Assembly: GCA_050273025.1 (NCBI GenBank)
Contig: CP158635.1
Span: 18,352,001 to 18,416,000 of the forward strand
Source of the DNA: Cenococcum geophilum
Lineage: Eukaryota
Direction: 5' to 3'
DNA length: 64,000 nt
In this document: one piece after another, positions 1-63,653 of the stretch
Layout: each line of letters opens with the position of its first letter
How positions within the stretch are numbered: the first letter of the stretch is position 1
Translations under genes and position numbers: made by a program
Notes under the pieces: model-generated
Told to the model about the DNA's origin: nothing
Databases searched by the model: none
What the model saw: the letters and a program-made list of their open reading frames with translations, nothing else

Positions 1-1140
1 CCTAGCGGCTCTAGTTCTATAGACGTTAGTAGTAATAGTAAATAAATAAGCTATAATAAGGCGTAATAGGTATCTAGAGACTAAATTAACGGTAATACAC
101 TACTAGTAATTAGAAACAGTAAATAGATAAGCTATAATAAGGCGTAATAGATATATGGAGACTAAATTGACGGTAATATACTACTAAGAATTAGTAACAG
201 CGAATAGATAAGCTATAATAAGGTGTAATAAGTATATAGAGACTAAATCAGTAATAATACGCTACTAGTAATTAGCGACAGCGAATAAATAAGCTATAGC
301 TCTGCATAATAGGTATATAATAAGTCCTTTAATAGTGCGGTTGCTATAAATTCTACTTATATATATTAATAAATTTCTTCTAAAACTCTTATATCGTTAT
401 ATACCCTAGTTTTAGGTTTTTAACGCGGTATAATAATAGTTTAATAGTATCCCTTATTAAGCAGAACTAGTAGTTTAAGCTTAGCTAATAATCGGCACCG
501 TAATTATTACACTAATACTATTTCTACTCCCGTTCTATTCTACCCATTATAAACTAGCCTAGTAATAGCTCTACCTACTCTCTAAATACGGGATAGTATA
601 ACTAAGTAGGACTTAGGAGTCCTAATAAGGGCCAAAAGCTAACGTATATACTACTAAATTATTTAGATATTATATTAAAATGCGTCGTCCCGTAAAATAG
701 ACTATTGGGCCTATATATAAAGAGTTTATATTAACTGCTTTAACTCCTAACTTTAGTAGTATATCTAATATCTTTAACTTAAATTCCTTATTTGCGTTAG
801 CCGCTAGAGTTACTATACTAAAGTAAACTATGTTAAATATACTATTTTCGTAAGCTTATACGCTTTATTACTTTCTATAGTATCTGTTAAGGTAATAATA
901 GGTATAGTTTTGGTTAGCGTAGTCTTCTAAATCTTCTATATTGTCTCCTTTAGGCTAAATTATACGAGGTTTATATACGACTTATTAATTACAAATACTA
1001 TATATATCCTATTCCGGTAATCCTTTATTAGAGTTTTATACTTACTTATTTTTTATATTACTATATCTAATTTTACAAGCTTACTATAAGTAAAATTGTC
1101 TAAGTAGTAGGGCAGTTTAGAGGGGTAGGCTTATTAGCCT
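1..1140 (-). pseudogene. RIPed unidentified gene remnant (possible Starship cargo) including the 81-bp repeat
   Basis: Not retroelement-like; minus strand reads as codon-like sequence after mentally reversing RIP; repeat period is a multiple of 3. No family recognised, boundaries approximate. Confidence 0.3.
40..300. repeat. 81-bp tandem repeat, ~3.3 copies (27-codon period)
   Basis: GCTATA(ATAAGG) recurs at 50, 131, 212 and 293. Confidence 0.92.
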
Positions 1141-3281
1141 ATTTATATTTTACGCACTAGGTATACTAATTCACCAACACGCACGGATATTAAAATGCTT
1201 GGCATTTTAAATAAGCCTTAAACATTTAACACCCTAATGCTTAGGCTTTACCATTTTTATTAGCGAGGATTTAGTAGTAATGTTTTTAATGCCTTAAATA
1301 TACCGCTAAAGGTAAGCAACTATATAACCTATGTTTCTCTACCTATAATAGGCTACTAACCCTTATTTTTTATAGGCATACTTATAACGTCCCTTCTTAT
1401 CCTTTATAATATTTAGCGGCCTAATATAAACCCTATATATGCTCTAATAGAAACTACTACGCTATATAACCCCCCGTAACGGGACTAGCCTAATTATAGT
1501 AGAAATGTAACGGAACCTTATAGTAAGTACTATAATAGGCTCGTTAATGGGCTAGGTGTGTAGGTAATGCAAATTAAAGTTAATAACGTAATAATAACTG
1601 GTAAAGTGGTTGCCTAATAGATTAACTCTAATTATATTCTAAGAATTATTATAAGGAAGGAATTATCTAGGTAGGGACTAAGGGTCCTTAAATACACAAC
1701 CGTACTCCTATAAAATCCTCCTTATATATAATATACGTACGCTTTATCTACTCTGTTACGGATTATATAGATCCTATAGATTATATAAATTACATTATAT
1801 AACCTTAGTTATTATTCCTTATTATATAGTTCTACTAGATCTATTCTAGACTATACTCTTATTAACTAACTAGCTTCTTCTAACTCTTCTCTAAGTAGTT
1901 ATAACATTATACTTAAAGCGTCTATAACACTATCTCCCTCCTCTTTATCTTTATTCTTAAAGATTCCTAGTATCTCTAAGTCGTTTACTAGAGGTATAAT
2001 ATCCGCCTAATTAATTTGGTTAATATCGTTACTTATTATACCTAAAGTAATTTCTTCTTCCTTAACTGCTTGTCGTGTCCGCACTATTGCCGTAATATTA
2101 TCTCTTAGTAAGATTATATTATCTCCGTATTCTTATTATACGAAAGAGGGATTAGTTTACGTTATACTAGCAAGTCCTTTATCTTAGCAACCATCCTCTT
2201 ATTTAGAGTGCACTAGAGTAAATATTTATTTATCCTATAATATTTGCTCTATTTCTAATACTAAATATACGCAACTTATTACTCTTAATAGTCGTCTAGT
2301 TCCCTAGTTAATTTATCTTAGGGTTTTATATTTAATCTGCTACTATACGGCTAGATAATAAACTATCTATTACTTTAGTAGAGTTATATTGCTTCTAGGA
2401 CGTAGAATAGGAGGCTACTAATGCTTAGCAATGGGCCCTTAAGTCTCGTCTTGCGGTATCTACTTAGTTAATCCGTCTTAAGAAGGTTTATAAAAAGGTT
2501 TATTTTAAGGAGTAGAAGCTTATAAAATAAGGTCTATAAGAACTTAGTAATAAGAGAACTAACTCTCTTCCTATAGTAAAGGGAATAACTCTAAGTAGTT
2601 TAGTAGTCGCTCTTTCTAGGTCCCCCTTAGGTGACTTATTTTTTGGTAATTCTTCTTTATTAATATTACCTAACCTATTTTCTTCTAATACTCTTATACC
2701 TTTCTTATAGCGTTCCTTAAATTTTCTAGTAGTTTCTAGGTAGTCTTATTATAGCCTATCTACTTAACCTTATACTATATTTTATCGTTAATATCCTTAT
2801 AACTAACGATCTTTAAAACTTACTATTTGTCTTCTTTCTCTCCTCTATATATATCTGCCTTATAGATTAATAGCTTAATATTCCCGTATACTGGTTCTAG
2901 CATTACAATATATTATATAGGGTAGATCTTTATTTTAGCTAGTAGGTTCAACTTAAATATAACCGGTGAAATTCTCTATATAATTTTAAAAGGTCTTAGT
3001 CTAACATAGTCTAACATCTTACTTAGTCGTCAACTTTTAAAATTTTTGTATAGTAGCTATACTTTATCTCCCTCCTTAAGATCTAGTCCCTTAGATCTCT
3101 TAGCGTTATAGTATTTCTTTATTTGTTATTATACTATCTTAGCTGTTTCTATAAGGTTTTTATAAAGATTTATTAAAGTCTCCATTCTCTACCTAGCTAT
3201 ACTACTTATCTTTTTTGCTTAACGTGGCGATAGCGATGTCCTTGGCTCGTATCTATAATTCGCCTTAAATAATAACGTGCC

Positions 3282-35390: not shown

Positions 35391-38300
35391 TATTACGGAC
35401 GCTTTAAGTACAATATTATAACTACTTAGAGAAGAGTCGGAAGAAGCTAGTTAGTTAATTTAGGCACGGTTTAGGATAGAGCCGATAGAGCTATATAACG
35501 AGGAATAGTAACTAAGGTTATATAATGTTGTACGTAGTATACGCAGTATATAAAGGGAATGTACGTATAATATATATAACACGTACCTTACGTATAAAGG
35601 GGATTTCTTAGGAGTACGGTTGTGTATTTAAAGGACCACAGTCCCTACCTAGATAGTTCTCTCCTTTATAGTAATTTTTAGAATATAATTAGAGTTAATC
35701 TATTAGGTAACCACTCCACTAGTTATTATTACGTTATTAACTTTTGTCTTTATATTACCTATATACCTAGTCTATTACGGAACACCCCTATAATACCTTG
35801 CACACGTCCACCTATCTCTACTAACTCAGCAATTAGAGACTAACCGCGAAATGGCAATCTAACGGCAATCTAATGGCAATTTAACGGCAATCTATGGCAT
35901 TCTGCTATATTCTGCCAAGTTCCACTAAATTCTACTAAGTTCTACTAGGACTACAACCTAAACCCTATTCTGCCTATATACGTGTTAACTAAGTAACTAA
36001 GTTAACAATATATACCCTTTCTTCCTATTTTCCTACCTTCTTTCCTTACGCAACGTCTTAACCTCCTTACACAGTTTATATACATAGCTTAATAATATCT
36101 ACCTTGCTATATATTATCGTCGCTTATACTTACTCCGTAACACTACGTTGCGTCAACTACCTATACTACCGTTAATATGCAGAACAAACCTAAAGCCCCT
36201 ATAACGGCCGCTAGTATTATATCTATACTTTAAGAATAATTAGTAGAGATATAGAAGTCTTTTATAAACGCCATTAAACAAAACTAAGCTACTTTAAATT
36301 AACAATAAGCCAAATAAAAAGCACGATACTAGTAATTAATTAAGAACCTCTAAGAAGAAGTCCGCGCCCTTAAAATACCTACACCAGAACCTTAAGACTA
36401 AACGCTATCTCTAGAGATAAATACGCGGAGCGCAAGCCCTAAACCTATAGTAGCTACTATACTAAAACGATCCAAACAACTCCTAGATCCCCTAGTATTT
36501 ACTAGTAAATAATAAAAGCTCTAATTATTTCTAAGCCAGCTTAAAAATAAGCTAACTAATAACGCTAACTATTACCTAACTAAAGCCAACTAACTCTGTT
36601 ACGCCCTAAGTTAACTAGAAGGAGATATAGCTAACCTTATTAAACCGCTTTAGCCAAACTTAGTATAAAGCCTAGTTATACTTCTTAAAGCTATATATAG
36701 TAACCTAAACCGCTAAGCTACTGCTTAAAGAAAGATAAACTATATAACTTAAGGAATAAAAAGTTTCCCAGTATACTTCTCTAAATTTAACTATTATGTA
36801 AAGGAAATAGGCTAGAACAACTCCGCACTAATTAACAGCCTTATTAAATCCTTAAGCCCCAAACTAAAAACCTCCCTAATAGGCGTAGACCTACCGGGAG
36901 CCCTTAATGCCTGCGCAAATATTATTAATAAATAATATAATAATATACTACGCCTAACACCGAAACCCACTCTATAATATAATACGGCAACCCCGCGAAT
37001 GTTTATTAAGTTATTGTCACAGCCTAAGCACCCTAACGCTATAGATATTAACACTAGGACCCTAGGGTACGCCCCACTAGGGTCCTCTAAATAAGAATAA
37101 CACATTAAGCTAGGCCTCTGCTTTAAATATAGAAGTAGCTCTTACCTCTCTAACTACTGCTCCGTCCCTATACCTAAATATAAATTACAAACGGCTAATA
37201 CTAGCAGCCGTTTACCGTATTAATCCCCCGGCTACCGTCCCTAATCTCTATCTGGTTCCAGCCCTATATCTAATAAGTACTATTTATAAAGACAAAGCTA
37301 TAGCCGACGTCCTATAAGAACCCCACCCTAATCGCCTCTAAAAGGAAGGTCCTAGAGCTAAGTCGCTCTTTAGGACGGCTCTACTATAGAATCTCATTAA
37401 ACGCATTTAACGTCATAAACTCCAACTCTTAGGACCGTAGCATAACTATTAACTGCCGTCTTCAGCAGAATAGTTAATAGGCTAATACTTAAATCCTAAT
37501 TAACACAGGAGCTAGCGGCATAGGATTTATTAATAAGATCTTTATATAAAATAATGGTTTTACCCTAACCCCCCTTAACTAGTATATTAATATATTTAGA
37601 TTTAATAGTAAACGCACCGTCTTAGGCCGTATTACCCACGTAGTATTCCTAAGACTCTAATACCTAAACTATAAAGAATTAATTAAACTTTTCGTTACCA
37701 CCCTAGGTTACTTAGTAATTTTTAAATAACCCTAGATAAAGCTATATAAGGTAACTATTAATTAGGATAACCTTAAGCTTCTATTTACCGCCTCCCGCTA
37801 TAAGTAAAAGTGCCTTATAACTTATTACTTAGACCTAAAACTAAAATCTAAGAAATCCACCACAATCTACTAGTCTAAAATTTCTATAACTGTCTACCCT
37901 ATACCTAAGAAATCTACCAGATTCTACCAACCTAGGAATTCCACTAAATTCCACTAATATAAGATTTCCACTAATGTCCACTCCACGTTTAAGAATTCTA
38001 CCGACATCCATTAAGGATCTAAAAACTCTACTAAATTCTATAAGTTATTACTAAGCACTATACCGCCCCGAGCTAAGTAAAAGCTTAAGCTCTATATACA
38101 AAAATACTAAAAGGACTAATATTCTACTATAAAAAGGATTCTTAAAGAACCCGAACCTAAATCTAATACTAACTCTATACCTAATACTAAACCTAAACCT
38201 AAATAAGAAACTATAGACAACCCAAGCAAGCTTAGTACCCTAGATATCCGCATAATTAGAGCTACCCCGCTAGCGCAACTTACTAAGAAACCCGAGTATA

Positions 38301-41300
38301 TAATCTTCGCTGTTACAACGGCTAATATTAAGAAGGCCTTAGCACTAAAGAAGCACACTAACCCTACCACGAAGGTACTAATAGAGTATTATTATCGCCT
38401 AGATATATTCTTATAAAAGGAAGCTAATAAGCTACCAAAATACCGACTATACAACTATAAGATTATACTTAAAGAAGGAAAGCAGCCCGGATTTAGACCC
38501 TTATATAAGATGTCCTAAAATAAACTCTAAGTGCTATAAAAGTATTTAAACGAGAACCTAAGTAAAGGATTTATTAGAGTAAGCTCGTCGCCTATAGCTG
38601 TATTAGTGATCTTTATTAAGAAATCTAGCGGTAGTCTACGCTTCTGTATAGACTACTAAGCTCTTAACGCTATTACCATTAAGAACTAATATCTGATCCC
38701 GTTAATATAAAAGACGCTAAACTAATTAAGTAAGGCTTGTTACTATACAAAGCTCGATATTATCTCTACATTTAACTATCTCCGCATTACAAAAGGGGAC
38801 AAATAGCTTACTGCATTTCGTACCTAATATAGACTATTTAAATACTTAGTAACACCCTTCGGCCTTACAAACGCTTTAAGCTCGTTTTAACATTATATAA
38901 ATAATACCCTACGCCCCTACCTGGATATCTTTTATACTACTTATATTAACGACATCTTAATATACAGTAATAACCTAACTAAATATTAGAAATATGTTAA
39001 CCTTATCCTATAAGCCCTATACGGAGCTAGTCTATAATTAGATATAGATAAATATAAGTTCCATAAAACGGAAGTTCTATACCTTAGACTCCTTATTTCT
39101 ATAAACGGTATATAAATAGACCTAAAGAAAGTCAAAGTAATTATAAACTGGTAAGAACCTAAGAACGTTAAAGACGTAAGAGACTTTATAGGATTTGCTA
39201 ATTTCTACTAACAGTTCATTAATAACTTCTCCGCCCTAGTTTTACCTCTTATAGCTCTAACCTAAAAGGATAAAGTTTTTATCTTTAATAAGGAATGTAA
39301 GAAGGCCTTTACCTATCTAAAGGTTATATTTACTACTGCGCCTATACTCTAACACTTTAACCTAAACTAAATAAGTGTTATAAAAGCTAACTCATCTAAC
39401 TATGTTACTAGAGGCATCCTATCTTAATATAATAAGGATAGAGTATTATACCCTATAGTATACTTCTTAAAATAACTAAGCCCAGCTAAATACAACTACG
39501 AGATCTACGATAAGAAATTGTTAGCTATTATTAGATATTTTAAACAATAGCAACCTAAACTAGAAGGCGCTAGATTTTTAATTAAGGTCCTTAGCAACTA
39601 TAAGAACCTGCAGTACTTTATAACCACAAAATAGCTAAGTTATCGTTAGGCCCGCTAGTTAGAATACCTATCTTATTTCCAATTCTTAATTATATACCGT
39701 CTAGGCGTTTAAGGTTAGAAGCCTAATACCCTAACCTAACGCTTATAAGACGCGCCAGCCCTAAAAGAAGCGCGCTCTTACTAAAATTAGACCCTACTTC
39801 GCCCTAAACTATTTAACCCTTCTACTAAAGATCTTATGGTATACGTCCTTAAAATAACTAATTAATCGATTAAATAGATTATAGTTAATAAATACCTAAA
39901 TAACAAGTTTATCTAAGAGACGCTTAAGCTAATACAAAATAGCATCAGACGCTCTAAAAAGATTTCTCTAAGTAAATGCGAAGCCTACAGAAACCGCTTA
40001 TATTACTAAAACCGTTTAGTTATCCCTAATCACAATAAGCTTAAGCTTAAACTCCTTAAACATATATACAATCTACCTATTGCCGGCCACCTAGGCTAAG
40101 GAAAGACCCTAAAACTACTCTAATAGGAGTATTATTGGCCAAACATATATAATATAACACGAAGGTATGTCTCTAGTTACTACACCTACTGACGAGCTAA
40201 AGCCTCGCATAAGACATATAACGGTCTTTTAAAGCTACTACCTATTCCAGACCAAAGATAGAAGGATATCTTAATTAATTTTATTATTAACCTTCCTAAG
40301 AGTAGAGGCTATATAAACATTATAGTAGTTATAGACCGACTATCTAAAATAAGACACTTAATCGCCTGCCCCAATATATTAACGCCTACCGTCGCCTAAC
40401 TATTCCTAGATTATATATAGAAACTCTACAAACTCCCTAAAACGATTATCTCCAATAAAGGCAGCCAGTTTATCTTAGCATTCTAGAAAAAACTAACTAC
40501 TTAACTCCATATTAAAGCACTGTTATTTACCGCGTATTACCTAAAAACGGATAGCTAAACAAAACGCGTAAATACTATAATGGAACAGTATATTCGGATA
40601 TATATGTTATATTTACAGGATAACTAGATTAACTGGCTTATATTCACTAAGTTTACAATAAATAATTCCGTCTCGGAAACTACAAAAGTCTCCCTATTCC
40701 TATCCAATTACGGCTAGCACCCATAAATAGGTTTTAACCCCTTTAATAATATTCCTCACCCCGCTTATTACACCTTATAAGTTATAGAAGCAAATAAATT
40801 TGTAGAGAAGATAGAGAAACTATAACAGTTCCTACTAATAAGATAATATATGCTTAATCTGTCTATAAAGCCGCAGCAAATAGGAAACGAACCCCAGCAC
40901 CAGCCTACTAAATTAGTAATTTCGTCTAGCTAGATATAAGAAATCTAAACACAAAACAACCTACTAAGAAACTTAATTAGAAGAACGCTGGCCCTTATAA
41001 GGTTAAAAAGGTTATCTCTCCTTATGCCTACTAACTGAAGCTCCCTAATACGGTTAAAATCCACCCTATATTCCATACGTTAGTTCTCCACCCTACTACC
41101 CCCGTATTAGACGCCCTGCCTAGACAGATATAAGACCCTCCCCTACTAGTTAAAGTAGATAGTAAGAACGAGTACTTTATTAAAAGAATTAATAATATTA
41201 AGTATAATAAACGGAAACGCCAATATATGTATCTTATAAAATGGAGAGGCTTTATTAAGTCCTTATGGGAACCCGTTAACTCTGTAGGACTTATATAAGC

Positions 41301-44300
41301 CACAGAAGACTTTTATAAACTCCACTTAGAACTACCATAGCCCCATCTCGCAGAAGCTTAAGTTTAAAGGGGGGGTACTATTACGGGACACCCCTATAAC
41401 ACCTTATACACGTCCACCTATTTCTACCGACTTAGCAATTAGAGACTAACCGTAAAATGGCAATTTAACGGCAATCTAATGGCAATCTAACGGCAATCTA
41501 CGGCATTCTGCCATATTCTGCCAAGTTCTACTAAATTCTGCTAAGTTCTGCCAGGACTATAACCTAAACCCTATTCTGCCTATGTACGTATTAACTAAGC
41601 AACCAAGTTAACAATATATACCCTTTCTTCCCGTTTTCCTACCTTCTTTCCTTACGCAACGTCTTAACCTCCTTACACAGTTTATATACATAGCTTAATA
41701 ATATCTACCTTGCTATATATTATCGTCGCTTATACTCACTCCGTGACAGCCTATTAATAAGCCCATCGTAGTCCTTACTATAAGGTTCCGTTATATAATT
41801 ACTACCTAGTTACGGTATTAAATACAGAAAAGTTAAACAATATGCCACTAAAAGCAGCCACTATAACGCCATCGACAGCGGTAACTACTTTAAGGTTAGG
41901 AGGCAATACTAGTATAGCAGATACTAACTTGCAATAACCTATAACGGTTAAATAACTATAAGAGATAGTTAACCAGTTAATAACAAATAATGCGGCGCTA
42001 AAAGAAAGGGTTAATAGAATAGGAGCAGCGAAGATTAAGCTACTATTAATTGAGAGGTACTTAGGAGAAAGATTAAAGCTTAAAGAATTCCTTACGTAAA
42101 TGTACTTTAAGGTTATACAAGAAGGAGTAAAGCTACTAATACCTATAGATCGAATAGTATACGCGGGACTATTTCTATTAGGAAGAGCACTTAAGTAGTT
42201 TAAGCCTTACCTTATGGAAATATAGGTAAATAGAATAACGACCACTAATTAGGAAGTACGATTTATATTCTTAAGCTAGGAAGGATTTACGGAATAACTT
42301 ATATATATATTTGGAAACCTAGAGGCAGTAACCACGGCGGAAAGAAAACTCTAAGATATTACGCAATAAACCTTAGTAATTAAGTATATAACGCAGTTCC
42401 AGACGCTAGCAATATAAGTTAAATAGAATAATAAGGCGCTTATAGCATAGTATAAATAGGGACTTAAGGCTAAAGTCTAGGACGTAATTATCCTAATGGA
42501 AGATGCGGATACCTTAAGGGAGTTAATAGATTAAGTAATTAAGATTAATAATTAGATCTACTAAAGGGAATAGGCTAAGAGAGGTTAGGATAAAGTTTTA
42601 TAGTTATATAAGGCGCAGAGTACGTAATAACTAAAGCTAAGTTAAAAACTATAGTATAGCGTAGAGCTAATGGACCTAAGTAGTACTAAAGAAGCCTATA
42701 AGAGATAAAGTAAAAAACTATAAAAACCTAAGGATCTAGTAATTAAGGACTAAGGAGTAAAGGCTAAGCCAGGGATCTTAGTAGCAGAAGACGTTTAGGC
42801 GGACTCTATAGTAAGAAAAATGGTTTAAAGAGGAAGCTTATATAAATTACGGAAAATAAGGTTATTACGCTAAAGACTATAGAAGTAGTTAAAGTTACTA
42901 TATAGTAAAAGGAATAAGACTAGCAGACAACGTATACGTATAGAGGGATAATAACATACTATAAGGAACAAAAGAATGTTTAATTAAAAGTTTTGCGTTT
43001 TATTATAATAACGTATACTAAATTTATAAGGACGCTAAGTATAGCGTAAGCTATTAGCTATAGGAGCTATACTTAGTAGAATATAGAGGAACTAATAAAC
43101 TAGTTCATAAATCGGATATTAAGGACGATAAATTTAACGTAGGCGAAATATTTTATAATAATAAGGTAATAAAGGTAGCTTACTAAGAGTATATAGACCT
43201 TAGAGATATTATATAAGAGGTAGAGGATAATTCCACTATAGAATAGGGAACATTAGTAGGGATTAAGACCCCGCTAGACACGATATCTATCGCTTTATAA
43301 AACGTAAGAGAAGTAGGACAGCGAGCTACTTTAGCACTTAATAAAGGTAAAAGGCCATAAACTTAAGACTCTTAAGACAAGATAAGGCAAGCTTAAGGAC
43401 CTATAACGGACAATAATCGATAGAGCAGAGTAGTAGCTTAATTTAGTAATATATAAATAAGCTCGGGACGAAGTTTCCCAAAGGCACAAGATTCTTAAGA
43501 CGAGATGAGTAAGATTTAAGACTTTTAGGACGAGATAAGAACACTAAGTAAGCCTAGTTAGACTAAGGCTGGAGCTAAACTTAAGATAGAAGCAAGTTTA
43601 GGATTAAGAATCCTATAGGACTAAGATTTTTAGACACAAATAAGGACTATTAAAGAATATAACACCAAGATTAAGAAGTAAGAAGACTTTAAGGATTTAC
43701 TTATAAGGCGAAAACCAAAGGAAACTATAGAAGAGTTTAGGTAAAGAATTATCGTATAGTAAGAATAGAAACTAAATAAGAGATTTAATATACTAGGTCG
43801 TATAAGGGACAAAGCACCTATATAAAGAATCACTAATAGGCCTAGGGTAGGTATACTAAGAGCTAAGTGGCTTATCGAACTAGAAAATAAAGAGGATTTA
43901 GGGATCTCTACTAGGTTCGAAGAACGGTATATAAAGGGCTGTTATAATATAGTAATAAGAAAATACTTCCTTACGGATAAGCTGTATACACTCTAATAGC
44001 TATACTAAAAGTGGTATAGATAACGATATAATGACGAGTAGGAAGATTTCTATATATAGTTAGATAAATAAGTTATTTAAGACCACCTAATTATAGAGAA
44101 GGCTATAACTTATATTAAAGGAGCCTTAATTATAATGTTAAAGGATCTAAAGGAATAATTAGAGGACTAAAGAAGCGAGAGGCGTATCTCCGTACCTATA
44201 AATAAAGTTATAACGTTTAGATTAGTATAATAAAGGTTTAAACTTAAAGATAAAGATAAGTTAAGAGTTAGCCTAAAGCACCTAGTATACTATACGCTAT

Positions 44301-47300
44301 TATGGATTGTATATATAGATGATATATATAAAATATATAAGAATCCAAAGGAAAAGAATTGGAAATACTTTATAAGGATATATTAGGCGCTAGATAAGCA
44401 ATAGTATAGAAATGCTAAGTATATATATAGATAGTATCTAGTAGAAGTATAAGAGTTAGGGGACCTAATACTTTAACTAGGAAGATTTCTTACGGAAGAA
44501 TGCTTAGATAAATAATAGTAGTAGGAATGCCTAGAGAATATATATTTATAGTATATAGAAGATAAAAAGCGAACTAGGTATTAGCTAAAGAACGAGCTAA
44601 GTATAATAGGATTAAGCAGCTAATAGTTAGGAAAAGTAAAGGCTTATAGAACTAGAGGGAGCTAGTAGTAGAGCCTTAAACCCTTAAAGGAATTTAAGGA
44701 TAATACCTAAATTTACGAGTTAAATAGTAAGATTAGCAGTTTAAAGCGCTAATAGATAGTAGAGTAACGCGAAACTATATCTTACTAGCAGTAGTTAAGA
44801 AAATATGATTACCTTATAGATAGAAGGAATAACCTTACCTATTAGTTATAATTTTAGGAGATCCAATAGCCTACAGGAGAGGGATTATTAATCTTAAAAT
44901 AGGACCTATTTAGATAACCATTAAAGGAAGACGAATTAAGATATCTTTTAATATCCTACTATTAGGACAGGATAAGGTAGTATTAGGAATGCCTTAGTTA
45001 TAGGAATATAATCTAAAGATTAATTGGATTATAGGTTAGGTTAATATTAAGGATACTTAATACTATAAGATATAACAATAAACTAAGTTAGTATAGTACT
45101 AAGTTAAAGCGATATATAAAGAGACTAAGCGAGGCTTAAGTTATATACTAAAGAGATACTATAAATATAGCAAGAAACTATAGAGCCTAGAAAGTAAAAA
45201 GCTGTTAGACTATATAGTATAGGATTATAAAATAGAATTAAAACTAGAAATAAGTCTAAGGTTCTTTTTAACCTATAAGCTTACTAAAGAGGAAGGTAGA
45301 GTATTAAAAGAGTTTATCTAGGAAAACTTATAAAAGGGATATATTAGACTATCGCAGTTATTAGCGGGTTATCTAGTACTATTTATATTAAAGAAAAATA
45401 GTAAACTAAGGCTGTGTATCGACTATAGATAGTTAAACAGTATTACTAGGAAGGATAGGTATCATTTACCCTTAATTAGCGAAATCTAAGATTGGATAGG
45501 TAATGCGTAAATCTTTATAAAGATAGATCTAAGATAGGCGTACTATTAAATTAGAATTAAGGAAGGCGATAAATAGAAAGCAGCTTTTAAATTAAAGGAA
45601 GGGCTATATAAACTATTAGTTATGCAATTTGGGCTTATAAACGCACTAGTAATATTCTAGAAGCGTATTAATAATATATTAGGAGAATACTTGGATAAGT
45701 TTATTATAGTATACTTTAATAATATTATTATCTACTTAATAACTGAGGAAGAATACGAGAAATACGTTAAATAGGTTTTAGAGAGACTATAAAAAGAACA
45801 GATGCTAGTAGTAATTAAAAAATGCGAGTTCTTTACTAGAAAAACCAATTTTGTTAGATTTATTATTAAACTAGGCCAACTTAGTATAGATCTAAAAAAG
45901 ATTAAGGCTATAGTAAATTAGTAAGAACTAGAGAACGTTACGCAGTTAAGATTGTTTTTAGGGTTTTGCAATTACTACAGAAGGTTTATAGTATAATGGT
46001 TAAAGAATATTAAACCATTTACGCGGCTAACAAAAAAAGAAGAACTATAGGTATAGGGAAAGGAACAGTAAGAATTATTTAAGAAAGTTAAGGAATTATT
46101 TACCTAGGAGCTAGTTCTTAAGATCTATTAACTAGGACTAGAGATAGTTATAGAAATAGACGTATTAGACTTTATATTAGGGGCGTGCTTTATATAAAAA
46201 TATTAAGATAGATAGCACCTAGTGGCATACTATAGTTGAAAGATAACACTACTAAAGTTAAACTATGATATTTATAACAAGGAGTTATTAGGTATAGTTA
46301 CAGTACTAAAGAAATAAAGAGCATTCTTACAAGGTACGGAAAAACTATTTATAGTTAAGATGGATTATAAGAACCTAATAGGATTCCTAATAATAAAGGA
46401 ACTTAACTAAAGATAGGTTAAATAGGCAGAGATACTTACAGAATAATATTTTAAGATTTAGTATACTAAGGGAACAGACAATATATAAGCAGACGCTCTA
46501 AGTTAAAAAGCTAAACTACAGAATAATAAAAGCTATTAAGGGCTTTACTGTAAAAAGACATAGATCGATTAATTAGGTATAATCACGTAAAGATTATAGT
46601 AACTTAAGAAGATAACGAACTAGAAAGAGTCTATAAGATACTAGAAAGCTTTTAGGTATAAAGGATCTTTAAAGTATAGCTAGAAGAATAGTTAGAATAT
46701 CTAGGAGAGGAGATATTATATAAGCATAGAGAGGCAAAATATATCCTAAGAAGTATAGTAGAGCATTTTATAGAAGATTTCTATAAGGGAATAACTTAAG
46801 GATATAACGGAGCAATAGGCTTAGTATTAAGACTCTAGAAGGAATATATTATTAATAGAATCTAAAATATCGCAAGAAAAGTAATAAAGGAGTGTCTAGA
46901 TTGCTAAAGAAATAAACTAATAAGGTATAAGCTATATAGAGGGCTATAACCTATTAAAATACCAGAGAGACTATAGGAGGTTATATTATAGGACTTTATT
47001 ATTAAGTTACTAAGGTTAAGGGACCCTATTACCAGATAAGATTATAATATAATCTTAATAATAGTAGACAAGCTTATAAAGTGGGGCTATTTTATAGCAT
47101 ATATAGAAGAAATATTAGTAGAAGATATTGCTAGAATCTATATTAAAGAAGTGTTTATAAGATATAAAGCACTAAGTAAAATTATATTAGATAGAGATCT
47201 AAGATTTATAATAGTATTCTGGGAAGTATTTTTAGTAAAGTAAGGAGTTAGAGCAGCAACTTTTACCGCATATTATTCGCAGATAGACGGTTAAACGGAA

Positions 47301-47378
47301 AGGTTAAATTAGACGCTAGAATAGTATCTAAGATATTATATTAATTACGCGTAGAATAATTAGGTATTACTATTACTA
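35391..47378 (+). mobile_element. Ty3/Gypsy LTR retrotransposon A2, 5' part (LTR, gag, protease, RT, RNase H, most of integrase)
   Basis: 5' LTR 35391-35772 + 41749-41795 (split by E); gag ATG at 41842; collinear with the reverse complement of A1; breaks abruptly at ...TATTACTA (47378); left TSD GTTTA 35386-35390. Confidence 0.95.
35773..41748 (+). mobile_element. Ty3/Gypsy LTR retrotransposon E (RIPed), inserted in the 5' LTR of A2
   Basis: 370-bp LTRs 35773-36142 and 41379-41748; polypurine tract AAAGGGGGGG before the 3' LTR; RT YINDIL at ~38942; chromodomain-like YLIKWRG at ~41230; TSD degenerate (GTCTA/GCCTA-like). Confidence 0.95.
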
Positions 47379-47918
47379 CTAGAATCTTGTTATTGGGGAG
47401 GACGCAGCCGGATTTAGAGGTTCCTCCCCCCCGTTTTAGGAGGCTGTTTCTCCTTACTTAGACCTATATTTATCGCCGCTTTTATAATATACTAAGCATG
47501 CTAAGGACGGCAGGGTCTTCCTTACTTACCTACTAAACCTAAAAGCTCCCTAAACGTCCCTTGGCGGCTAACGTTATTTAAAAAGCTATAGACGTCTACC
47601 GCCTACTTTTATCCTTATCCTTTTCTAAAAGCACTACCCTTATATAACGAAACCTCCCTTCTATACTACGCTCCTTTAACCCTTTTCCTACAGTAGCTAT
47701 ATATGCATTTTCCCCTATTATTATATTGTTTACTTCTAATACTTAATTTCTAGGTTTCTACCTATAGGGTTTTTTTGCCCTATTCCGCTCTTAAGAACGC
47801 CGATCTTCTATAGAGCCTTTTTTAGCGTTCCTATTAATAGCAGTCGCTCTTAAGCTAGCTTCTATATATAGGCAACTAGTAGCTGCTAAGGTACTAAAAT
47901 ACTACGCGTTTAACTACT

Positions 47919-50440
47919 ATACCTTCTTAAAGTAAGAAATGGCGAAATATAGATCTAGTCTTTAGCTTAGACTCTAAACTAGGTAAGCCGTCTTATTCTA
48001 AGCCAGCTTCGGACTTAAATTTAAGCTTTAACTCTAGAGCTAGGGAAGACGCTAATTCTAAGGGGGAATATTTGTAGTAGAGAATTGCGTATTATAAGGA
48101 CTAAAGAAGGGCAAAGTTAAAACAGAAGCCCTGCTCTACTTCTCTTATTAAATATAAGTTTTAGAATTAGAAAAAGTTCGTTTATATTTAAACTAAAATT
48201 TACCTTGTAATACTAACGATTTGTATTTAGGTTCTACCTAAAAGTTAAGTCTAACCCAATTAAGGCCCTTTATTAGTATATAGCTAATATATTTAAAATA
48301 TACCTTAAATAGCGCGTAAAGAATTCTTAAATTAAGAAGGAAAGTATAATCTAGGCGTACTAAAGACGAATACTATATAAATTTATAAATATAGCAGGCT
48401 ATAGTATAAATAATAGTGCAGAATTTAATATACAAGATATAGGTAATCTTTAATTTTTAAAAAAAAAATCCTAGCTAATTTGTTATAGTGGATCCTAACC
48501 TACTTAACTCTAATATATAAGCTAGATACGTTAAAGAAAGAAAAGGATATAATATATATGCAGGACTTATATATAATTATTAATACCTATTAGATAACGG
48601 ATATAAAGCCTTACTATAGTTGTTTTCAAGTGCAGATAGGAGTAATCCTCCTCCTCTTTAGTGCTACGGCAATAAGACCCTAAGCTCTTATTAAAAGTTT
48701 AAGCGCGAGAGGCTCTAATAAAGCGCTTTTATATAAATATATTATAATCCTAAAAGTTTATAATATAAAAAACTTCAATTAAACTATAACTGTTACCCTT
48801 GTAAGTCTTATATATATTAAGAATTCTAAAGGTATAGGTAGATGGTATATAGCGACGTTAATTAAAGATAGCGCGAATGGTGTTAATAGACCTATAGTAA
48901 GAGGTTTATTTTCCGTCTTAAAAGCATCTTAGCTTTTTATATTCTATCCTATCTTATAAGCCTTACTATTACGGATAATATATTTTAACGCCATTACACT
49001 TTACCAAAGAAGATTTTTAGACTTAAAATCCTAGCAAAAAAAAAAAGTCTTAAAGTAAAGTTTAAGAAGGAGATAGAGAAACGACCCATCTTTTAAGATA
49101 TTAAGATAATGGCTAGTTATAGGGGAGTGTTAGACACTAAAGCGTTCCCTTACCAGAAATGCCGTAATTACTATATATAGTTAGGCCGAATGGCTAGGTT
49201 TAAATAATTACTTAAACTTTACTAGCTACGATAAGCGTTTAAAAGGAAATTAAATAGTAAGTATCTAATTTAATATAAATATATATATTAACTAAGTTTT
49301 CTAGGCGCCCTTACTTTAAAAGAGCAAAATTAGATAATAGGTTATTACGGCGATACCTACTAACGGTTTTATTTACCTAATTTAATTAAGTGTAATTTCT
49401 AGTTAATCTACTTTAGGACTCTATTATAGGATAACCTTATCTAATATACCGCGTAGATAGGGATCTTAAGGAATAAGCGGGCCCCTATAGGTCTAACTAA
49501 TAAGCAAAAGCTTAAATTCTAGCTAGAACTTAATTAACACCCTAATATTTTATAGCTTTATAGGAAATAGGAGCAATATAAGTAAAAGATTAAAAGCTAG
49601 GAATATTACCCTATTAATACCATAAAGGGAATAAAACTATATAACCGTTATAATAAAGCCAGATATAAACTTTATAGTATTATAAATATCCTACGTAAAT
49701 AAAAAGAGGACTAGGTTATTTTTAATTTTTATAACGCCATTAATAATTATAATATTAAAAGATAGCTTAGTAGTAGCGTTAGGATGGAAATTCCTACCCG
49801 TTTAGCTATATAGTATAAATTTTATAAACATACTGCTATTACTAAACTACTATCTTAGGCGCTAAATAAGCTTAAAGAAGGACACGCTATAAAACTCCGT
49901 ATAAAGTTTATCCGTAATCTTATTAAGTATTATAATTAATAAAAGAGTTAGCAGAATAGGATTCTAAGCAAGGCTATTAGATTTTAACTTAGGTCTAAAG
50001 TAGATTAAAGTATAATAGGCGTAAAAAGAGGTATAAGTAACGCTAATACTAGTACCTATTAATAGGTAAAGCAGTAAAAAGAATAGATTAGCTTAGACTT
50101 ACCTTTCTAAGAAAACCTAGATAAGACGTAGAGCGCGGTCCTAATTAAGGAAGAGGGTGTTAAGATAATATAGCTATTATATCCTATAACGTTTACTAAT
50201 CTTATTTATTTTATCTATATCGGTAATAACTAACTCTTAACGCTAAGGTAGACCCGCCTATTTACGAAAAAGGATATACTATAGAAGTATTTTAATAATC
50301 ACGTTATAGAAGGAGTGTTTAGGTAGGGGTTCTACTATAAGCATCCTTATTACTTAGAGTAGATTAAAGGACTTAAGTATTTTAAAAATTACGTAGCCCT
50401 TATACATGGCGTATAGCATCTAATTAAGAGGTACCACTAG
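47919..50440 (+). pseudogene. RIP-inactivated DUF3435 tyrosine recombinase (Starship captain type)
   Basis: De-RIPed by eye: acidic N-terminus, FKxYLxWRVKNSxIKKES, LLLFxATAxRP (catalytic R), HIKNS-like, FIFRLE, LYQLRR, MMGH, YxRFY, FQSIYFG, RAPxGL and C-terminal CxHPxC...HFKNHxxxxHG finger; introns at ~48176-48230, ~48440-48488, ~48845-48897, ~49257-49304. Start ATG appears as ATA. Confidence 0.88.
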
Positions 50441-50699
50441 GTAAGTCGCCTTACCTATATAAGAATCTTATACTAACCCTCTAGTACCTATAGAAAGGTA
50501 TATAACTGGTAAATTTAGAACTATACGTTCTTTATATATGGGACCTTTTCCTAGTTATTACGCGCTTATCTTATTATTCTTTACCATTTTTTATTTTATT
50601 TTAATCTATTATTATCTAATCCTATTCTAGTATTTAGTAGAATAGATATAATAACTAAGATTTTATAATTCGTTTAGTTACCTATTAGTTAGTTAGTTA

Positions 50700-52235
50700 G
50701 GGTTAATTATACTAGATATTTAGTTAGCTTTTACCTAAAAGCCTCTATTATAGGCAGCTGTAAGTATAGGAGATTAGGTATATATAATCGCTTTATAGAC
50801 TTTAAACTTTAGCCCCTAGTATATAAGTTTTAAGTTGCTATATTTCTTACTTTTTATAAACTATGCTAAGCTAAGCAAAGCATTTTTAAATAATATGTTT
50901 TATTAGTTTTCTTTCCTAGTTCTAGTTTTAACTGCGTTTTAAGTAATATTTAAGGGTATAATTTAGTATTAAACAGGACAATTAAGAATAAGAACTTTGC
51001 TTTATTAAATATGGCTTTAAAGCCTCTATATATATATTAAGAAGTCATTATTAGCTTTATCTAATCTGTAACGGATTTAGTTAATTAGTTAGAGCTTTAA
51101 ATATTAGTCGCTTAACTACGGACTAATATAACTTCTAAAGTTTTAGGTTAATATTTAGCTTATATATATGCTAAGCATTTTCCGCTACCCCTTTAACCGG
51201 ATAAAGCCAGTTATATAACTAGAAAACCCTACTATCTATATTTAGTAAAAGTAATATCCGCGCTTTTTATAGATTATTTACTATAATGGTAACTTAGACT
51301 ACTAAAAGCGGTAAACCCTTCGCTAAAACCTTAGCAATACTAATACTAAAAAGGGCCTTTCTTAACTTAAGGAAAGAGCGTAAAAATATATTAGGAATCC
51401 CCCCACTACTAGCCTATAGAATAACTTTAACGCTTAATCTATTGCACTATATTTAATAGCGCTAGCTTCTAACCCACTACGTAATAAAACCCACGCCTAT
51501 AAAAATTAAAAAGTGCTTAGTAGCGTTAATACCTATTTAAACCTTCTCTACTATCTACTTTAGATATTTAAACTCCTTTATCTAATCTTTAGAGATTATA
51601 GTATAGCAGATTTTAGAGTTAAGAGTTAATTTAATTGCGATATAGTTAGTATTTAAACCAATAATATAAATACGCTATTGTAATATTAATTAATAATTTT
51701 TAAAATTAGTCTTTTACTTACCCCTTTATTAACGTTAAAAAGTTATTTAGTTAAAACACTTTCCTTAAAATTAACTTAGCTAGTAAATGTATTATAGAAA
51801 TAGAAAAAATCCAGGTCCTATATCTAGCTATTAAATTCCTTTACTAATCTACTATAGTTAAGCAATTCCCTATACTAGGCTTCTCTATCCTATATATTAA
51901 GTTTAAGGGTAGATTTACGACTTAAAGCTATATATAGGATTTCGGATATTTTGTTAAGCAATAGGGATATTTAATTAGAATTAATAAATAGCCTAAAAGG
52001 GGAGAACTAGGCGCTACTAGTATATCTAAAAAGATAAAGGTATTAGCAGCCCCATCTTAGTATAGAGAGGTGCGGTTTTTACTTACCTAAAAGTTAAGTG
52101 TAGTTAATAGTAATAAGGTCTTTATAAGATAGGATTGATAATCCTTAGGAGTCTATTATATATATAAAAGACTTAATTAGCCGAAACCGGCGCCCTTAAT
52201 GCCGTATTATAAATAGTAAGATATAGGTTGCGGTA
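50700..52235 (-). pseudogene. RIPed unidentified intron-containing gene, 3' part, convergent with the captain
   Basis: Two minus-strand GTAAGT...TAG introns (52086-52026 with GCTAAT branch site; 51721-51675). Product not recognised; ends approximate. Confidence 0.5.
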
Positions 52236-52240
52236 TAAAC

Positions 52241-54043
52241 TGTAACGGAACCTTATAGCAAGGACTATAATAGGCTCGTTAATGGGCTAGGTATATAGGT
52301 AATGTAAAGATAAAAGTTAACAACGTAATAATAACTGGTGGAGTAGTTGCCTAACAGATTAACTCTAATTATATTCTAAGAATTACTATAAAGGAGAGAA
52401 CTATCTAGGTAGGGACTGTGGTCCTTTAAATATACAACTATAATCCTAAGAAATCCCCTTTATATATAAGGTACGTGTTATACGTGTTATATATACATTC
52501 CCTTTATACACTATATACACTATGTATAACGTTATATAACCTTAGTTACTATTCCTTATTATATAGCTCTATCGGCTCTATTTTAGACCGTGCCTAAATT
52601 AACTAACTAGCTTCTTTCGACTCTTCTCTAAGTAGTCGTAATATTATACTTAAAGCGTCTATAATACTATCTCCCTTCTCTTTATCTTTATCTTTAAAGA
52701 TTCCTAATATCTCTAAGTCGTTTATTAGAGGTATAATGTCCATCTAATTAATTTAGTTAATATTATTACTTATAATACCTAAAGTCCTTTCTTTTTCGTA
52801 AGCGCAACGTCGTGCTTATACGGTTGCTGCGATATTATCTCTTAATAAGATTATGCCGTCTCTATATTCTCGCTGTTTAAAAAAGGGGTTAGTTTATATT
52901 ATATTGGCAAGCCCTTCCTCCTAGTAACCCTCTTCTTGTTTAGAGTGTACTAAAGTAAATATTTATTTGTCCTATAACGTTTACTCTATCTCTAATATTA
53001 AATATATACAACCTATTATCCTTAATAGCCGTCTAGTTCCCTAATTAATTTATCTTAGGGTTTTGTGTTTAATTAGCTGCTATAAAGCTTAATAGTAAGC
53101 TGTCTTAAGCTCTTACTAATTTAGAATATTCTTAGGACGTAGAGTAGAAGGCCTTAAAGGCTTATATTACGGCATCCGCTTAGCTACTCCATCTTAAAAA
53201 GGTTTATAAAAAGGTCCGTTTTAAAGAGTAGAAGCTTATAGAATAAGGTTTACAGGAACTTAGTAATAAAAAAACGAATTCTCTTTTAATAAAGAAGGAA
53301 ATAGATCTAAGTAGTTTAGTAACTGATTTTCTTAGGTCCCCCTTAGGTAACTCATTTTTTAATAATTCTTTTTTATTAATATTGCCTAACCTAATCTCTT
53401 CTAATACTCCTATATCTTTCTTATAGCATTTTTTTTAAATTTTCTAATAGTTCCTAGGTAGTCTTATTATAGCCTATTTACTTAACCTCGTACTATATTT
53501 TATCGTCAATATTCTTATAACTAATAATCTTTAAAACTTACTATTTATCTTCTTCCTATCCTCTATATATATCTGCTTTATAAACTAGTGGCTTAATATT
53601 CCTATATACTGGCTCTAGCATTATAATGTATTATATAGGGTAGATCTTTATCTTAGCTAATAAGTTTAACTTAAACGTAATTAGTGAAATTCTTTATATA
53701 ATTTTAAAAGGTCTTAGTTTAACGTAGTCCAACTTCTTACTTAGTCGTTAACTTTTAAAATTTTTATATAGTAACTATATTTTATCTCCCTCCTTAAAAT
53801 CTAGTCCCTTAGATCTCTTAGCGTTATAGTACTTTTTTATTCTCTTTTATACCTTCTTTACTAATTCCATAAGGTCTATATAAAGATTTATTAATATCTT
53901 TATTCTTTCTTTAGCTATATTACTTATTTTCTTTGCTTACCGTAGTAATAATAATGTTCTTGGTTTATATCCGTAATTTGCCTTAAATAGTAATATATAT
54001 ATTCCTTCTTACGGTGTTGCGTTATATATAAATTATATAACTA
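52241..54043 (-). mobile_element. Ty3/Gypsy A2, inverted 3' part (integrase end, 3' region, 3' LTR 52241-52666)
   Basis: Resumes on the minus strand exactly where the 5' part stops; LTR carries A2-specific variants (GGGACTGTGGTCC, AAGGAGAGAAC) absent from A1 LTRs; flank TAAAC 52236-52240 is the reverse complement of TSD GTTTA. Confidence 0.95.
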
Positions 54044-54044
54044 G

Positions 54045-54426
54045 TTATATTTCAATAATTTAATTTCGCGATGCAGATGCAAACAACTTAAATTCACGTG
54101 ATGTTCTAACTTAATCAGGAAGGAACTAAACTCAATCAATGGGGGTGGGGTCTATAATTAAATAGTCGAGGGTGGGCACGTGCACACGCAGTCTTCGACA
54201 GACTTCGGCAGAATTCGATGAAGTGGCAGAACTTGGCAGAATTCGCTTCAAGCGGTTTTCATCTATCGAGCGTTTCACCGAGACATTTCATTGGCAGAAC
54301 TCGGCAGAATTCGATCGAGTTGGCAGAATTCGGTAGAATTCGGCAGAATTCGACTAAAGCGTCGGTTTTCATCTGTCGAGTGTTTCACCGAGACATTCTT
54401 ACTGTGACTGGGCTAGTTCCGTTACA
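54045..54426 (-). repeat. UnRIPed LTR remnant related to the B-family LTR
   Basis: Minus strand starts TGTAACGGAACTAGCCCAGTCACAGTAAGAATGTC, matching B LTR starts (1475, 34340); GAATTCTGCC-type decamer repeats; internal duplication with 110-bp offset (54256/54366). Similarity to B is lost left of ~54150, so the left boundary is inferred. Confidence 0.8.
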
Positions 54427-54590
54427 CTGCCCTATAATCTGCTTCTAAAGTGATTATTATATTTTTATTGAAGGAGAGTCCACCTTTAGATGATTAATGA
54501 CCATGACAAGGCTATGCTCGAATATATGAAACTCTGTGGAAAACCAGAGCGGGGCATACGCTGCAAATGCTCTCGAAAAAGAAAAAATAA

Positions 54591-55269
54591 GGGGTCGTTC
54601 GGTTGCAAATGAGCTCAAGATCATAATCTGTTCGATCTGTGCGCCTTTTAGTGTCGCCCGTTTCGTAATTAGTGGCGGCTACTACCGTGGCTCAGTTGAA
54701 TCTGTAATTGAGTCGACCGTTCGGTAAACCTCCAGATTGGTAGGCGATTTGAGTGACCCCCTCTGCCACTAGGCCTCTATCGCGACTCCCTGCTTTGGTG
54801 TAGTATGGAGCCTCCTCCACGGCCAACACCCTCTCGCCGGTCGATCTTTTCTACACCTGCGCCAACCTCCCGTACGAGCCGCAGTACGAACCCCCCCCCC
54901 CCGGAAATAAGCTCATCGTGATCACGAAGGTTAAGATAATGACAACATAAAATAAGGCTTACAACTGCGACAGCAGTATCACAACTGGGGCGTGTGGAGT
55001 CGCCATATCATAAGAATTCGTCACTTTGGCATGTATGCGAAAGCTCCGGGGTCAATATGGAATATATAGAACGTATTGAAGCGGTGCCAAGAGCCTCATT
55101 TCAACTACTGTATACGGTATAGCTTGCAAATTTGCTGCGCTTACCAATATGGAGGAGCTCCATATTCAAAAGTCGTCAGATCTACCGAACAACAGCCTCA
55201 TATTCAGATTTGAGCTCCAGATCAGTTACATTATGGAGCCTCAATATGAAGTTGCAACCGAACGATCCC
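54591..55269. mobile_element. PIF/Harbinger-type non-autonomous element (MITE), 679 bp
   Basis: Terminal inverted repeats GGGGTCGTTCGGTTGCAA / TTGCAACCGAACGATCCC (17/18) flanked by TAA on both sides (54588-54590, 55270-55272). Confidence 0.75.
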
Positions 55270-55607
55270 TAATCCGGACACCATCAAATCCGAATATTAT
55301 CCACTTCGAAGCTTCTGAGAGGTCCTAAAGAGGATATCCAAGGATGCCACACCCTTATCTGAAACATGTCAAGCCCGAGGTGGTGACTTGCAATCGTAGA
55401 TGGTCGATCGGTAAGAGTAGTCGAAGATTTGCGAACGGGAAGGAGGGTTGGGTGTTGGAGTGAACGAGTGGCAAAACGGCGCCGATCAAACAGTCTGTAT
55501 GGCAATTTGACCCTGTGCATCGAGTTGTGGGGTAAAGCGAGAAGGCGAAAGATGACGATCGCAGCAGCTCACAAGGGCCCACCCTGACACGCTACTTACG
55601 GCACCTA

Positions 55608-56130
55608 CTCGTGGCACCCACTAGTAAGCAGCGCTTACTAGTGGTCCCGGGCTCAATGCAACAACCGAGCTCAATGCAACTTTTATATTTGTATGGCGTC
55701 TCATACAAAATCGACCTTTTTCCAAGTTGAATAACTTAACAATACTACATAGAAATTATATAAGAATTTAAAGGCTTATATATAATCCTTTAAAAATCAA
55801 TAATATAACTTATTTAAAGCTGATATTTATTGTATTTATTGTATTTCTATACTTTTTATTATTATATTTTATTTAAGGCCAGTAAATACTAAAACTTCTA
55901 TAAAATAGAAAATTAATATTAAAATTAAGTTTCTTTATACTTATTTAGGTATAAAAAAAAGAAGTATATATATTTAATAATTTATTATAGCGTTGTTGTT
56001 GAGTTATTCAACTTGGAAAAAGGTTGATTTTGTATGAGACGCCATACAAATATAAAAGTTGCATTGAGCTCGGTTGTTGCATTGAGCCTGGGACCACTAG
56101 TAAGCGCTGCTTACTAGTGGGTGCCACGAG
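55608..56130. mobile_element. Tc1/mariner-type MITE, 523 bp, ~135-bp TIRs
   Basis: Near-perfect long inverted repeats starting CTCGTGGCACCCACTAGTAAGC; TA on both flanks (55606-55607, 56131-56132); AT-rich non-coding core. Confidence 0.93.
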
Positions 56131-57409
56131 TACGGCGTAGCTGCTTCGTGCAGCGCAGCTACTCCACAGTTCCCCCGCTGATGGATTGAAGCTTGTCTGC
56201 AGTGAACGGCAAGGCCGGAAGCTGGAGCTACCATGCAAGTGTACCTCACACTCTAGCGCACATATTCGATTATTAAAACCGATCCCATAGCTAGCAGAGA
56301 CGCTCTGCTATTTTCGTCCCTCGTCTGTCCGGGCTCCGAGGCGTGTTAGTGTTTGGCCCAAGATGGTGTGATAACGTCCGATAAGCTGTCCAAGCGCTGG
56401 CTCTACAGTCTTGGTCGACGCCGAACGGCTACGGAGAAGATTGCATTGGTGTGCATTTTGCCCAAAATAAAGGCTAGCAGTTGGACTCGGGACGAAAGAA
56501 GAGGGCTGATGGCTGCATGCGCTGTGCCTTATTCGCACTGACCCCCTCGCCCATTCACTTGGCTTGGCCAACCGAGCGTTCCGCGCAAAGCCACTGGCCC
56601 ACTGATAACTGGGGTGAGGGCGAGCTTCCAGCATGGCGCTGTTCGAATCGATGAGGGCGGGGACCAAACAGAGGCATTCCCTCGTTGCCATCTGTACCAC
56701 CACTCCCACCATTCCCGCGACCTTTCTTCCTCTCCAAAATGCTGCCCATTATCGTCCATCCATACCAGAAGCCATAGCGATTCTTGCGCTGTCCGGCCTT
56801 GATCTCATTGTGCATCTTTATTGTAATTCGCTATCTGCTATCAACTGTTAGCCCTTTGGTCCAGATTCCCAATTATCATCTGCCGATCCTCCAGCGCGGC
56901 GTTGAAACACTTGATGCAAAGCCCGAAACTGTTCATCCAGGTACGAGACCATGCATCATTGTCACAGAAGATTGCCACTCATGCTCACGAATTGCTCTTT
57001 CAAGGCTCGTTACGTCTTCGCCCGTAATATTGTGGCACTTCAGCTGCATCATCACACCTCTATTCACCCACTCTAGTCTTTAACGACTCTACATCCGCAC
57101 AATCGCTACTGCAGCCACCCGCGGACTATTACCCTCTGATACCATTACATGAAACGGCCCTCCTGTGCTATTCACAATCCACAGCCTCCTACGCGGTTTT
57201 GAGCCCACTAGGTTGGCTTTGAGGTTTGCAGATTTTATGCTTTACCTTGGTTATGATGCGGCAAGCGCCCAAGCACTGAGGCAGTGAAGTGCTGAAGCAC
57301 CAAAACTCACTCGTGCCCCACCATCGTTCGACCCATCTCACACAAACTCTCGTCCGTTCGCCACGATTCTGGCCCCCGAAATACCTAGATCTCACAAATA
57401 TCGGTCGTC

Positions 57410-63249: not shown

Positions 63250-63653
63250 GTTTTCGGCTAGAAGTTAGTGATAGATTGGACAAGAGCTAAGCGCTTATCA
63301 GCGTTATGGTAAAGATTCCAGCTCACTACTTGGTGCCTTTTATATTCAAGAAAAATCTTCTATTGGGTTGGCTATCGAAATCGAAGATGAAAATTAAGTA
63401 GCAAGCATTCAGCACAGAGACTGCGCTATCTCATACTTCACACAAACTGGCTGAGAAACATTGACGTTGAGTGTCCCTTCGAGCAATATTCATAATTGAA
63501 TATGCTCCAATCTCTCCTTCAATGCCCTCGAGTATTTTCAGATACCCAGAACACCCAATGCGCAGGTCGCATTCGCAAGACATCTTCTCAGTTTAGTAAC
63601 AATTGTGAAAAGCTCCTCACATGAGTCATCAATATCACGACGCCTGCCTCTCA

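Follow-up and report, generated by a model that had tools for sequence, protein, structure and literature searches.

What is the stop-ridden, gene-sized sequence inside a RIP-damaged block of DNA next to ordinary genes, and how did the sequence around it reach its present arrangement? The window analysed here is the whole 64,000-nucleotide stretch G000:C1:18352001-18416000 of a 178-Mb genome (G000) in 7 contigs. Positions 1-54040 of the window are AT-rich and carry a RIP signature (composite index of about 0.9-2.1), with ordinary genes beyond. We consider it very probable that the sequence is the captain of a Starship, probably of the Serenity family, and that the locus records the spread of that family, its death by RIP, the nesting of a Gypsy element in one copy and an inversion with a captain-type far junction.

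The identity of the gene was investigated with stop codons read as X. One of the six frames of 47901-50503 matched the Pfam DUF3435 profile above its cut-off (E 2e-19, 70.3 bits against 25.8), and the gene could be aligned exon by exon with intact captains, which confirms the DUF3435-type recombinase of the original prediction. A phmmer search with the central block of the captain returned 135 proteins at E<=0.001, and all of the best seven long proteins, when scanned, contained DUF3435. The closest intact protein was K469DRAFT_715808 of Zopfia rhizophila, with 46.7% identity over 754 residues (the best among 59 proteins of at least 500 residues). Five exons, amounting to 772 codons, and four introns were placed between 47919 and 50440 on the plus strand. 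The four introns had also been predicted, and intact captains align to the window gene in four blocks whose ends coincide with those splice sites; the alignment of the Zopfia protein extends to its C-terminus at 50437. Introns 1, 3 and 4 have GT...AG ends, and branch-like motifs occur in all four. The donor of intron 2 reads AT in the window copy and in all five of the commonest variants among 36 copies; consequently, the position of this intron was set by phase and alignment. The captain and the sequence on either side of it are laid out as follows:

47377..47918, plus strand (542 bp): left arm of the Starship, with a sharp 5' boundary in all copies
47919-48175, 48231-48438, 48489-48844, 48898-49256 and 49305-50440, plus strand: the five exons of the captain
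50678..51145, minus strand: remnant of a second, convergent gene, with a weak BTB/POZ match in sister copy L052 (E 0.015, below the cut-off)
51146..52240, strand not assigned: cargo module, entire only in the sister copy at G000:C1:32.85 Mb (one of 40 scored candidates, besides the window copy itself)

The gene is heavily mutated. It contains 55 internal stops, 32 TAG and 23 TAA but none TGA, and its start codon reads ATA, where 24 of 36 copies have ATG. The RIP composite index over the gene is 1.1-1.6, and comparison of the window captain with 38 copies gave 10,188 transitions and 518 transversions. The predicted RIP of the gene is thus supported by the index, by the excess of transitions and by stops that are exclusively TAA or TAG. 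Residues of functional interest were followed through the copies by alignment. At the C-terminal zinc finger, also part of the original prediction, the window copy has Tyr where 4-15 of 38 copies have Cys or His, and these positions align with Cys and His of intact relatives. For the putative catalytic residues R-K-H-R-Y, the first Arg is aligned in the window copy and in 37 of 38 copies, the Lys in 38 of 38, and the tyrosines appear to be kept. The presumed Arg-Arg motif of the catalytic region reads Arg and stop in the window copy, with Arg in 14 and 10 of 38 copies, respectively, and the candidate catalytic His is found in just 2 of 39.

A DNA search of the genome recovered at least 39 other copies of the captain at 85-91% identity (40 scored of 382 candidates). 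Exact patterns for the two ends of the element matched 41 places (left end; the window's own left end lies outside these) and 52 places (right-end core), and controls matched none. Every one of the 39 other captain copies examined carries 28-52 stops. The captain family is present at about 45-55 places in the genome, and RIP killed every copy examined. Including other captain families, the genome contains 165 DUF3435 matches, nearly all with stops. Multicopy status had been predicted on the argument that the damage lies several kilobases from any LTR element. The conclusion holds by counting copies, not by distance: a Gypsy pol ends 543 bp upstream of the gene, and an LTR begins 1.8 kb downstream. 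In the captain region of L046, L048, L051, L052 and L054, the transversion pattern changes copy group along the gene. These mosaic patterns suggest that the captain copies probably recombined among themselves, and commonly.

Two captains with little RIP were also observed. At G000:C6 about 8,404,000-8,407,200 (L075 4499-7702, minus strand) lies a diverged captain of the group to which the window gene belongs, with 68% DNA identity to that gene and a protein 70-80% identical to that of Zopfia. Its final exon lacks a stop, its RIP index is about 0 (GC 45-49%), and its left end is homologous to that of the window family and also lies at the Gypsy site t1 described below. Another, at G000:C3:7969165-7970527 (L074 about 4100-5900), belongs to a different captain family and has the best DUF3435 score in the genome.

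The extent of the element was established from its copies. All 36 aligned left ends are conserved from 47372 onward, and the DUF3435 gene starts 542 bp inside the boundary common to all of these copies. Copies have about 5 kb of common sequence from the left end, beyond which there are several cargo haplotypes. Four copies were walked end to end (27.1, 27.3, 37.1 and 37.7 kb), and all reached the same right end. Matching ends by proximity and strand gave 36 pairs that span 27-150 kb (median 40 kb) and sum to 1.74 Mb, nested repeats included. Homologues of the empty sites, compared with the flanks of sister copies L048, L052 and L058, contain the repeat once, and direct repeats with a single-copy empty site were also found for L055, L060 and L069 at t1. 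Among 13 candidate frames, the cargo encodes a fungal protein kinase (Pkinase_fungal, E 1.5e-28) and the one weak BTB match. These observations identify the window gene as the tyrosine recombinase, or captain, of a Starship with cargo, placed at its 5' end.

The window copy has a private deletion of about 1.0-1.1 kb at 50677/50678. In six frames of 50601-52252, Pfam gave no meaningful match, one holin match falling below the cut-off. Pieces of this region, 50678-51253 and 51227-51651, recur about 1.6-2.2 kb downstream of DUF3435 matches of two other captain families (L079-L085 and L078), which suggests that modules were exchanged between captain families.

The target of the family reads ATWHC|T-N6-A. 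Base by base, the left ends have A (44/44), T (44/44), A or T (43/44), A, C or T (44/44) and C (44/44), followed by T; at the third position, A occurs in 25 ends, T in 18 and C in one. On the right, the first base after the terminus is T in 47 of 48 ends, and the eighth is A in all 48, against a background A frequency of 38%. These counts cover 48 of 55 right-end loci, leaving out seven without the terminus, and represent about 37 distinct sites. Bases 2-3 of the element (47378-47379) vary by transversion among the 36 aligned left ends, with A, T or C at the former and C, A, T or G at the latter, and they often mismatch the current right flank. Conjugative transposons carry coupling sequences over from their previous site, and by analogy these two bases may have been carried over in the same way.

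Several targets were used repeatedly. Site t1, in the integrase gene of a Gypsy element, flanks six of 44 left ends and four right ends. Five t1 copies were tested; they differ by 13-40 transversions, form no clade and contain differing cargo, so they are separate insertions, and t1 was used independently at least five times. Segmental duplication was considered as a source of the site-sharing copies and ruled out, as four of the five t1 copies have clearly nearer relatives elsewhere. Other reused repeat sites, homologous to window positions 17477, 40327, 7551 and 53682, flank 5, 2, 2 and 2 right ends, respectively. All flanks examined, 44 left and 48 right, are RIP-type sequence. The family lands in retrotransposons, although in a genome so rich in repeats RIP-type flanks need not mean a preference.

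In the window copy, the left end is followed by just 4.9 kb of the element, and the rest lies leftward on the opposite strand. The arrangement involves these features:

1..1310, minus strand: further Starship cargo, equivalent to positions 7774-9083 of full copy L052
34683..35390, minus strand: Starship cargo after the second TSD copy, uninterrupted in a sister copy with a single TSD copy
35391..47376, plus strand: Gypsy 5' half, from the 5' LTR to t1 (RVT_1, E 6.6e-20; Integrase_H2C2, E 8e-4)
35772-41748: second LTR element, which interrupts the LTR of the Gypsy
47371..47376, plus strand: left junction, with the direct-repeat or target half TATTAC, here the hotspot site t1 in the Gypsy integrase
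52241..54043, minus strand: Gypsy 3' half, from t1 to the end of the 3' LTR (SH3_Tf2-1, E 4e-5)
54044..54049, minus strand: target half TATAAC at the far inversion junction, a hybrid of host repeat and Gypsy 3' half
54050..54145, strand not assigned: host repeat cut at the target motif, probably the original left flank of the Starship, with unRIPed DNA and genes beyond

Intact Gypsy copies align to 41748-47378 and then continue from 54049 back to 52243. The TSD TAAAC occurs at 52236-52240 and at 35390-35386, in each case beside one LTR end, and the two Gypsy LTRs are 89.7% identical, compared with 78-79% to other LTRs of the family in the window. The matching TSD and the best-matching LTR pair indicate that both halves belong to one Gypsy insertion in the Starship, and since both stop at t1 on opposite strands, 47377-54043 has been inverted. 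The 6,667 bp between the Starship left end and t1 are thus inverted, with both junctions at the crossover point of the target. Read on the minus strand, the far junction runs from host repeat through TATAAC into the Gypsy 3' half. Fourteen uncut homologues of the host repeat have (A/C/G)TAAC at the place of the cut, and 12 of them have A at the eighth base after it.

Toward the left, cargo runs on past the window edge for about 90 kb, as far as a right end at G000:C1:18261697. Comparison of 36.8 of these 90 kb showed that five of 16 stretches match the cargo of full copies well and collinearly; with this partial match, the right end was assigned by collinearity and by the sole match to the right-end pattern nearby. 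The window copy therefore spans 144 kb, whereas a full copy measures about 37 kb. Inside the window, Starship sequence makes up about 7 of 54 kb; nested repeats, which include at least seven LTR pairs, account for the remainder. Segments of two other nested LTR elements gave nothing meaningful with Pfam, and these were consequently named from their LTR pairs (with TSDs for two). The locus had been described as a dead giant transposon serving as a landing pad for retrotransposons. The 144-kb span, mostly nested repeats, agrees with that description, but the layout it implied does not stand, the cargo lying leftward on the opposite strand. The landing-pad relation also runs the other way, as the captain family itself inserts into retrotransposons.

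The flanks of the window copy form no single empty site. On the left is Gypsy site t1, the original flank would be the repeat at 54044, and on the right is Gypsy site t2. The right end was expected beside the rest of the host repeat; it adjoins t2 instead, and the expected host-repeat sequence was absent from all 48 right flanks examined. A further event, such as a flank swap or deletion, is needed to account for this mismatch. A host-repeat piece inside the cargo of L186 was considered as the reciprocal product and rejected, its junction not being clean. Mismatched left and right flanks were also observed in L043, L045 and L174/L154. On C5, a left end at 4741595 and a right end at 4770724, both on the minus strand, stand in an order that one intact element would not have and may mark a second rearranged copy.

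The events can be ordered as follows. The family spread by integration at ATWHC|T-N6-A, after which RIP killed every copy examined. The left end of the window copy would first have stood at the target motif of the host repeat, 54044-54049. The Gypsy then inserted into the cargo with TSD TAAAC, bringing an inverted copy of t1, the favoured target of the family, and the 6,667 bp between the Starship left end and t1 were inverted afterwards. More than 100 kb of other repeats piled into the element before or after these steps. A captain-type reaction probably accounts for the far junction at least, either directly or when a second copy was excised. We tentatively favour, at a probability a little short of even, a course in which the captain recombined the left end directly with t1 inside its own cargo, carried there by a passenger retrotransposon. 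It is also possible, with a probability clearly under one half, that a second copy landed in t1, that the inverted left arms recombined homologously and that the resulting chimeric copy excised precisely. The latter needs only reactions already shown for Hephaestus in the accessible parts of PMC10104507. Both courses predict identical junctions, so sequence cannot separate them. In the sister copy that shares the cargo module, the right end sits at t1, so the left junction of the window copy could go back to an insertion at t1.

Other origins of this arrangement were weighed. The inversion could be purely homologous: after a Starship had entered site t1 of a first Gypsy, another Gypsy would have nested inside the Starship in the opposite orientation, the two 5' halves would have recombined, and an unrelated deletion would have taken the outer half. 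The use of t1 as a hotspot, the right end of the sister copy at t1, the abundance of inverted Gypsy copies and the mosaic transversion patterns of the captains are all in keeping with such a course. It requires, however, a chance deletion ending exactly at t1 and at the target motif of the host repeat; the six bases at the junction are those of the host (TATAAC) and not of the Gypsy (TATTAC); and the Gypsy 3' half predicted beyond the right end is replaced by t2. We regard it as improbable. An assembly artefact in a repeat-rich region is less probable still, and we hold it to be very unlikely. Both junctions join repeats, and no independent sequence bridging them was found: when contigs of four public runs were compared with 53800-55200, none of the pieces listed bridged 54043, but the matches were swamped by repeats, and this comparison weighs neither for nor against the junction. 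Against an artefact, each breakpoint coincides base for base with the recombinase target motif, and the TSD has survived. A mis-join would be expected inside long stretches of near-identical sequence, of which the far junction has none.

The captain might instead have belonged to a compact, cargo-less transposon of 3-5 kb lying among unrelated retrotransposons. In favour of this, just 3.3 kb matched in the first search, and most copies diverge after about 5 kb. The 3.3-kb limit, however, is the deletion private to the window copy, and beyond 5 kb there are shared cargo haplotypes, the protein kinase among them, that lead to a common right end with a direct repeat. The paired ends and empty sites refute a compact element for the captain family, and for the locus we consider it extremely unlikely.

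On the right of the window, between the RIP-affected block and the genes, a small MITE-like element with 137-nt inverted arms (98% complementary) and an AT-rich core occupies 55606-56132 in unRIPed DNA. Ordinary genes follow at 57389-63998. Judged by their translations, the frame at 57389-59340 (plus strand) resembles a dual-specificity phosphatase, that at 60684-61424 (minus strand) DNA polymerase delta subunit 4 and that at 62130-63249 (plus strand) a scavenger decapping enzyme.

Derelict Starships are known, and a relic alone would be ordinary. The scale is of more consequence: the family amounts to at least 40 copies with about 50 right ends, all unseen by gene callers, against the low copy number described for Starships in the accessible text of PMC11162782. 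As dead copies escape gene callers, counts of captains with intact reading frames may miss whole bursts. About 37 distinct sites in one genome unite the repeat of Sanctuary with the N7-A rule of Hephaestus and a reused Gypsy integrase site, and an inversion with both breakpoints on the target motif makes the captains' own role in Starship rearrangements assayable. If the captain did recombine its left end directly with t1, captains would be one-ended invertases and deletases with site specificity. Given about 50 copies and thousands of Gypsy elements that bear the target, they would directly drive the rearrangement of chromosomes, and this would account for the mismatched flanks of the present family as well as for the way breakpoints are known to cluster at Starships.

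Membership in the Serenity family (fam04) is likely, as judged from the labels of relatives and a repeat match to Sanctuary rather than from a tree. The relatives cocsat1_310320, decgau1_636434 and photra1_502719 are assigned to fam04 in table S4 of Gluck-Thaler & Vogan 2024 (PMC11162782), and the captain COCSADRAFT_310320 of B. sorokiniana (fam04) is among the better matches to the window gene, with 31% identity over 613 residues. The placement is indirect, since the nearest proteins (Zopfia 715808 and Coniosporium) did not turn up in that table. Serenity (fam04, clade 1) is described, in the accessible text of the same source, as always lying in TE-rich regions, and the window family is likewise flanked by RIP-type sequence.

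Sanctuary, from Bipolaris sorokiniana, offers a close likeness. According to the parts of PMC12506042 that are accessible, its upstream direct repeat is ATWHCT, identical to that of the window family, and in both the 3' repeat is fixed within the element, as ATACCT in Sanctuary and ATAACT here. Sanctuary also has a conserved first 3.8 kb or so and last 3 kb or so, with variable cargo haplotypes between. It differs in being intact, 47-196 kb long and present in few copies per genome, whereas the window family comprises dozens of RIP-dead copies with a core of 27-38 kb. Neither a +8 A rule nor an inversion between end and target was found in those parts of the description. Hephaestus of Paecilomyces variotii has the target form core-N7-A, as in the window family (PMC11162782, in the sections available), and in the accessible text of PMC10104507 it likewise leaves the repeat once in the empty site, excises precisely and is killed by RIP when duplicated. 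The core of Hephaestus (fam02) is given in PMC11162782 as an invariant TTAC, whereas that of the window family is ATWHC, with T as the third base in only 18 of 44 left ends; judged by this core, the window element is not a strict Hephaestus-type TTAC element.

Starship insertion into TEs, RIP and nearby rearrangements have already been reported in the literature available to us. Subscription papers lie largely outside that literature, and within it we found no Starship family of such copy number and no inversion resolved to a target motif. In Verticillium, Macrophomina and Cryphonectria, inversions and translocations are concentrated in or near Starship regions, as described in the accessible parts of PMC12289983 and PMC11848846. 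The rearrangements in those accounts are associations, or have breakpoints ascribed to other TEs, whereas in the window both breakpoints fall on the captain's target motif.
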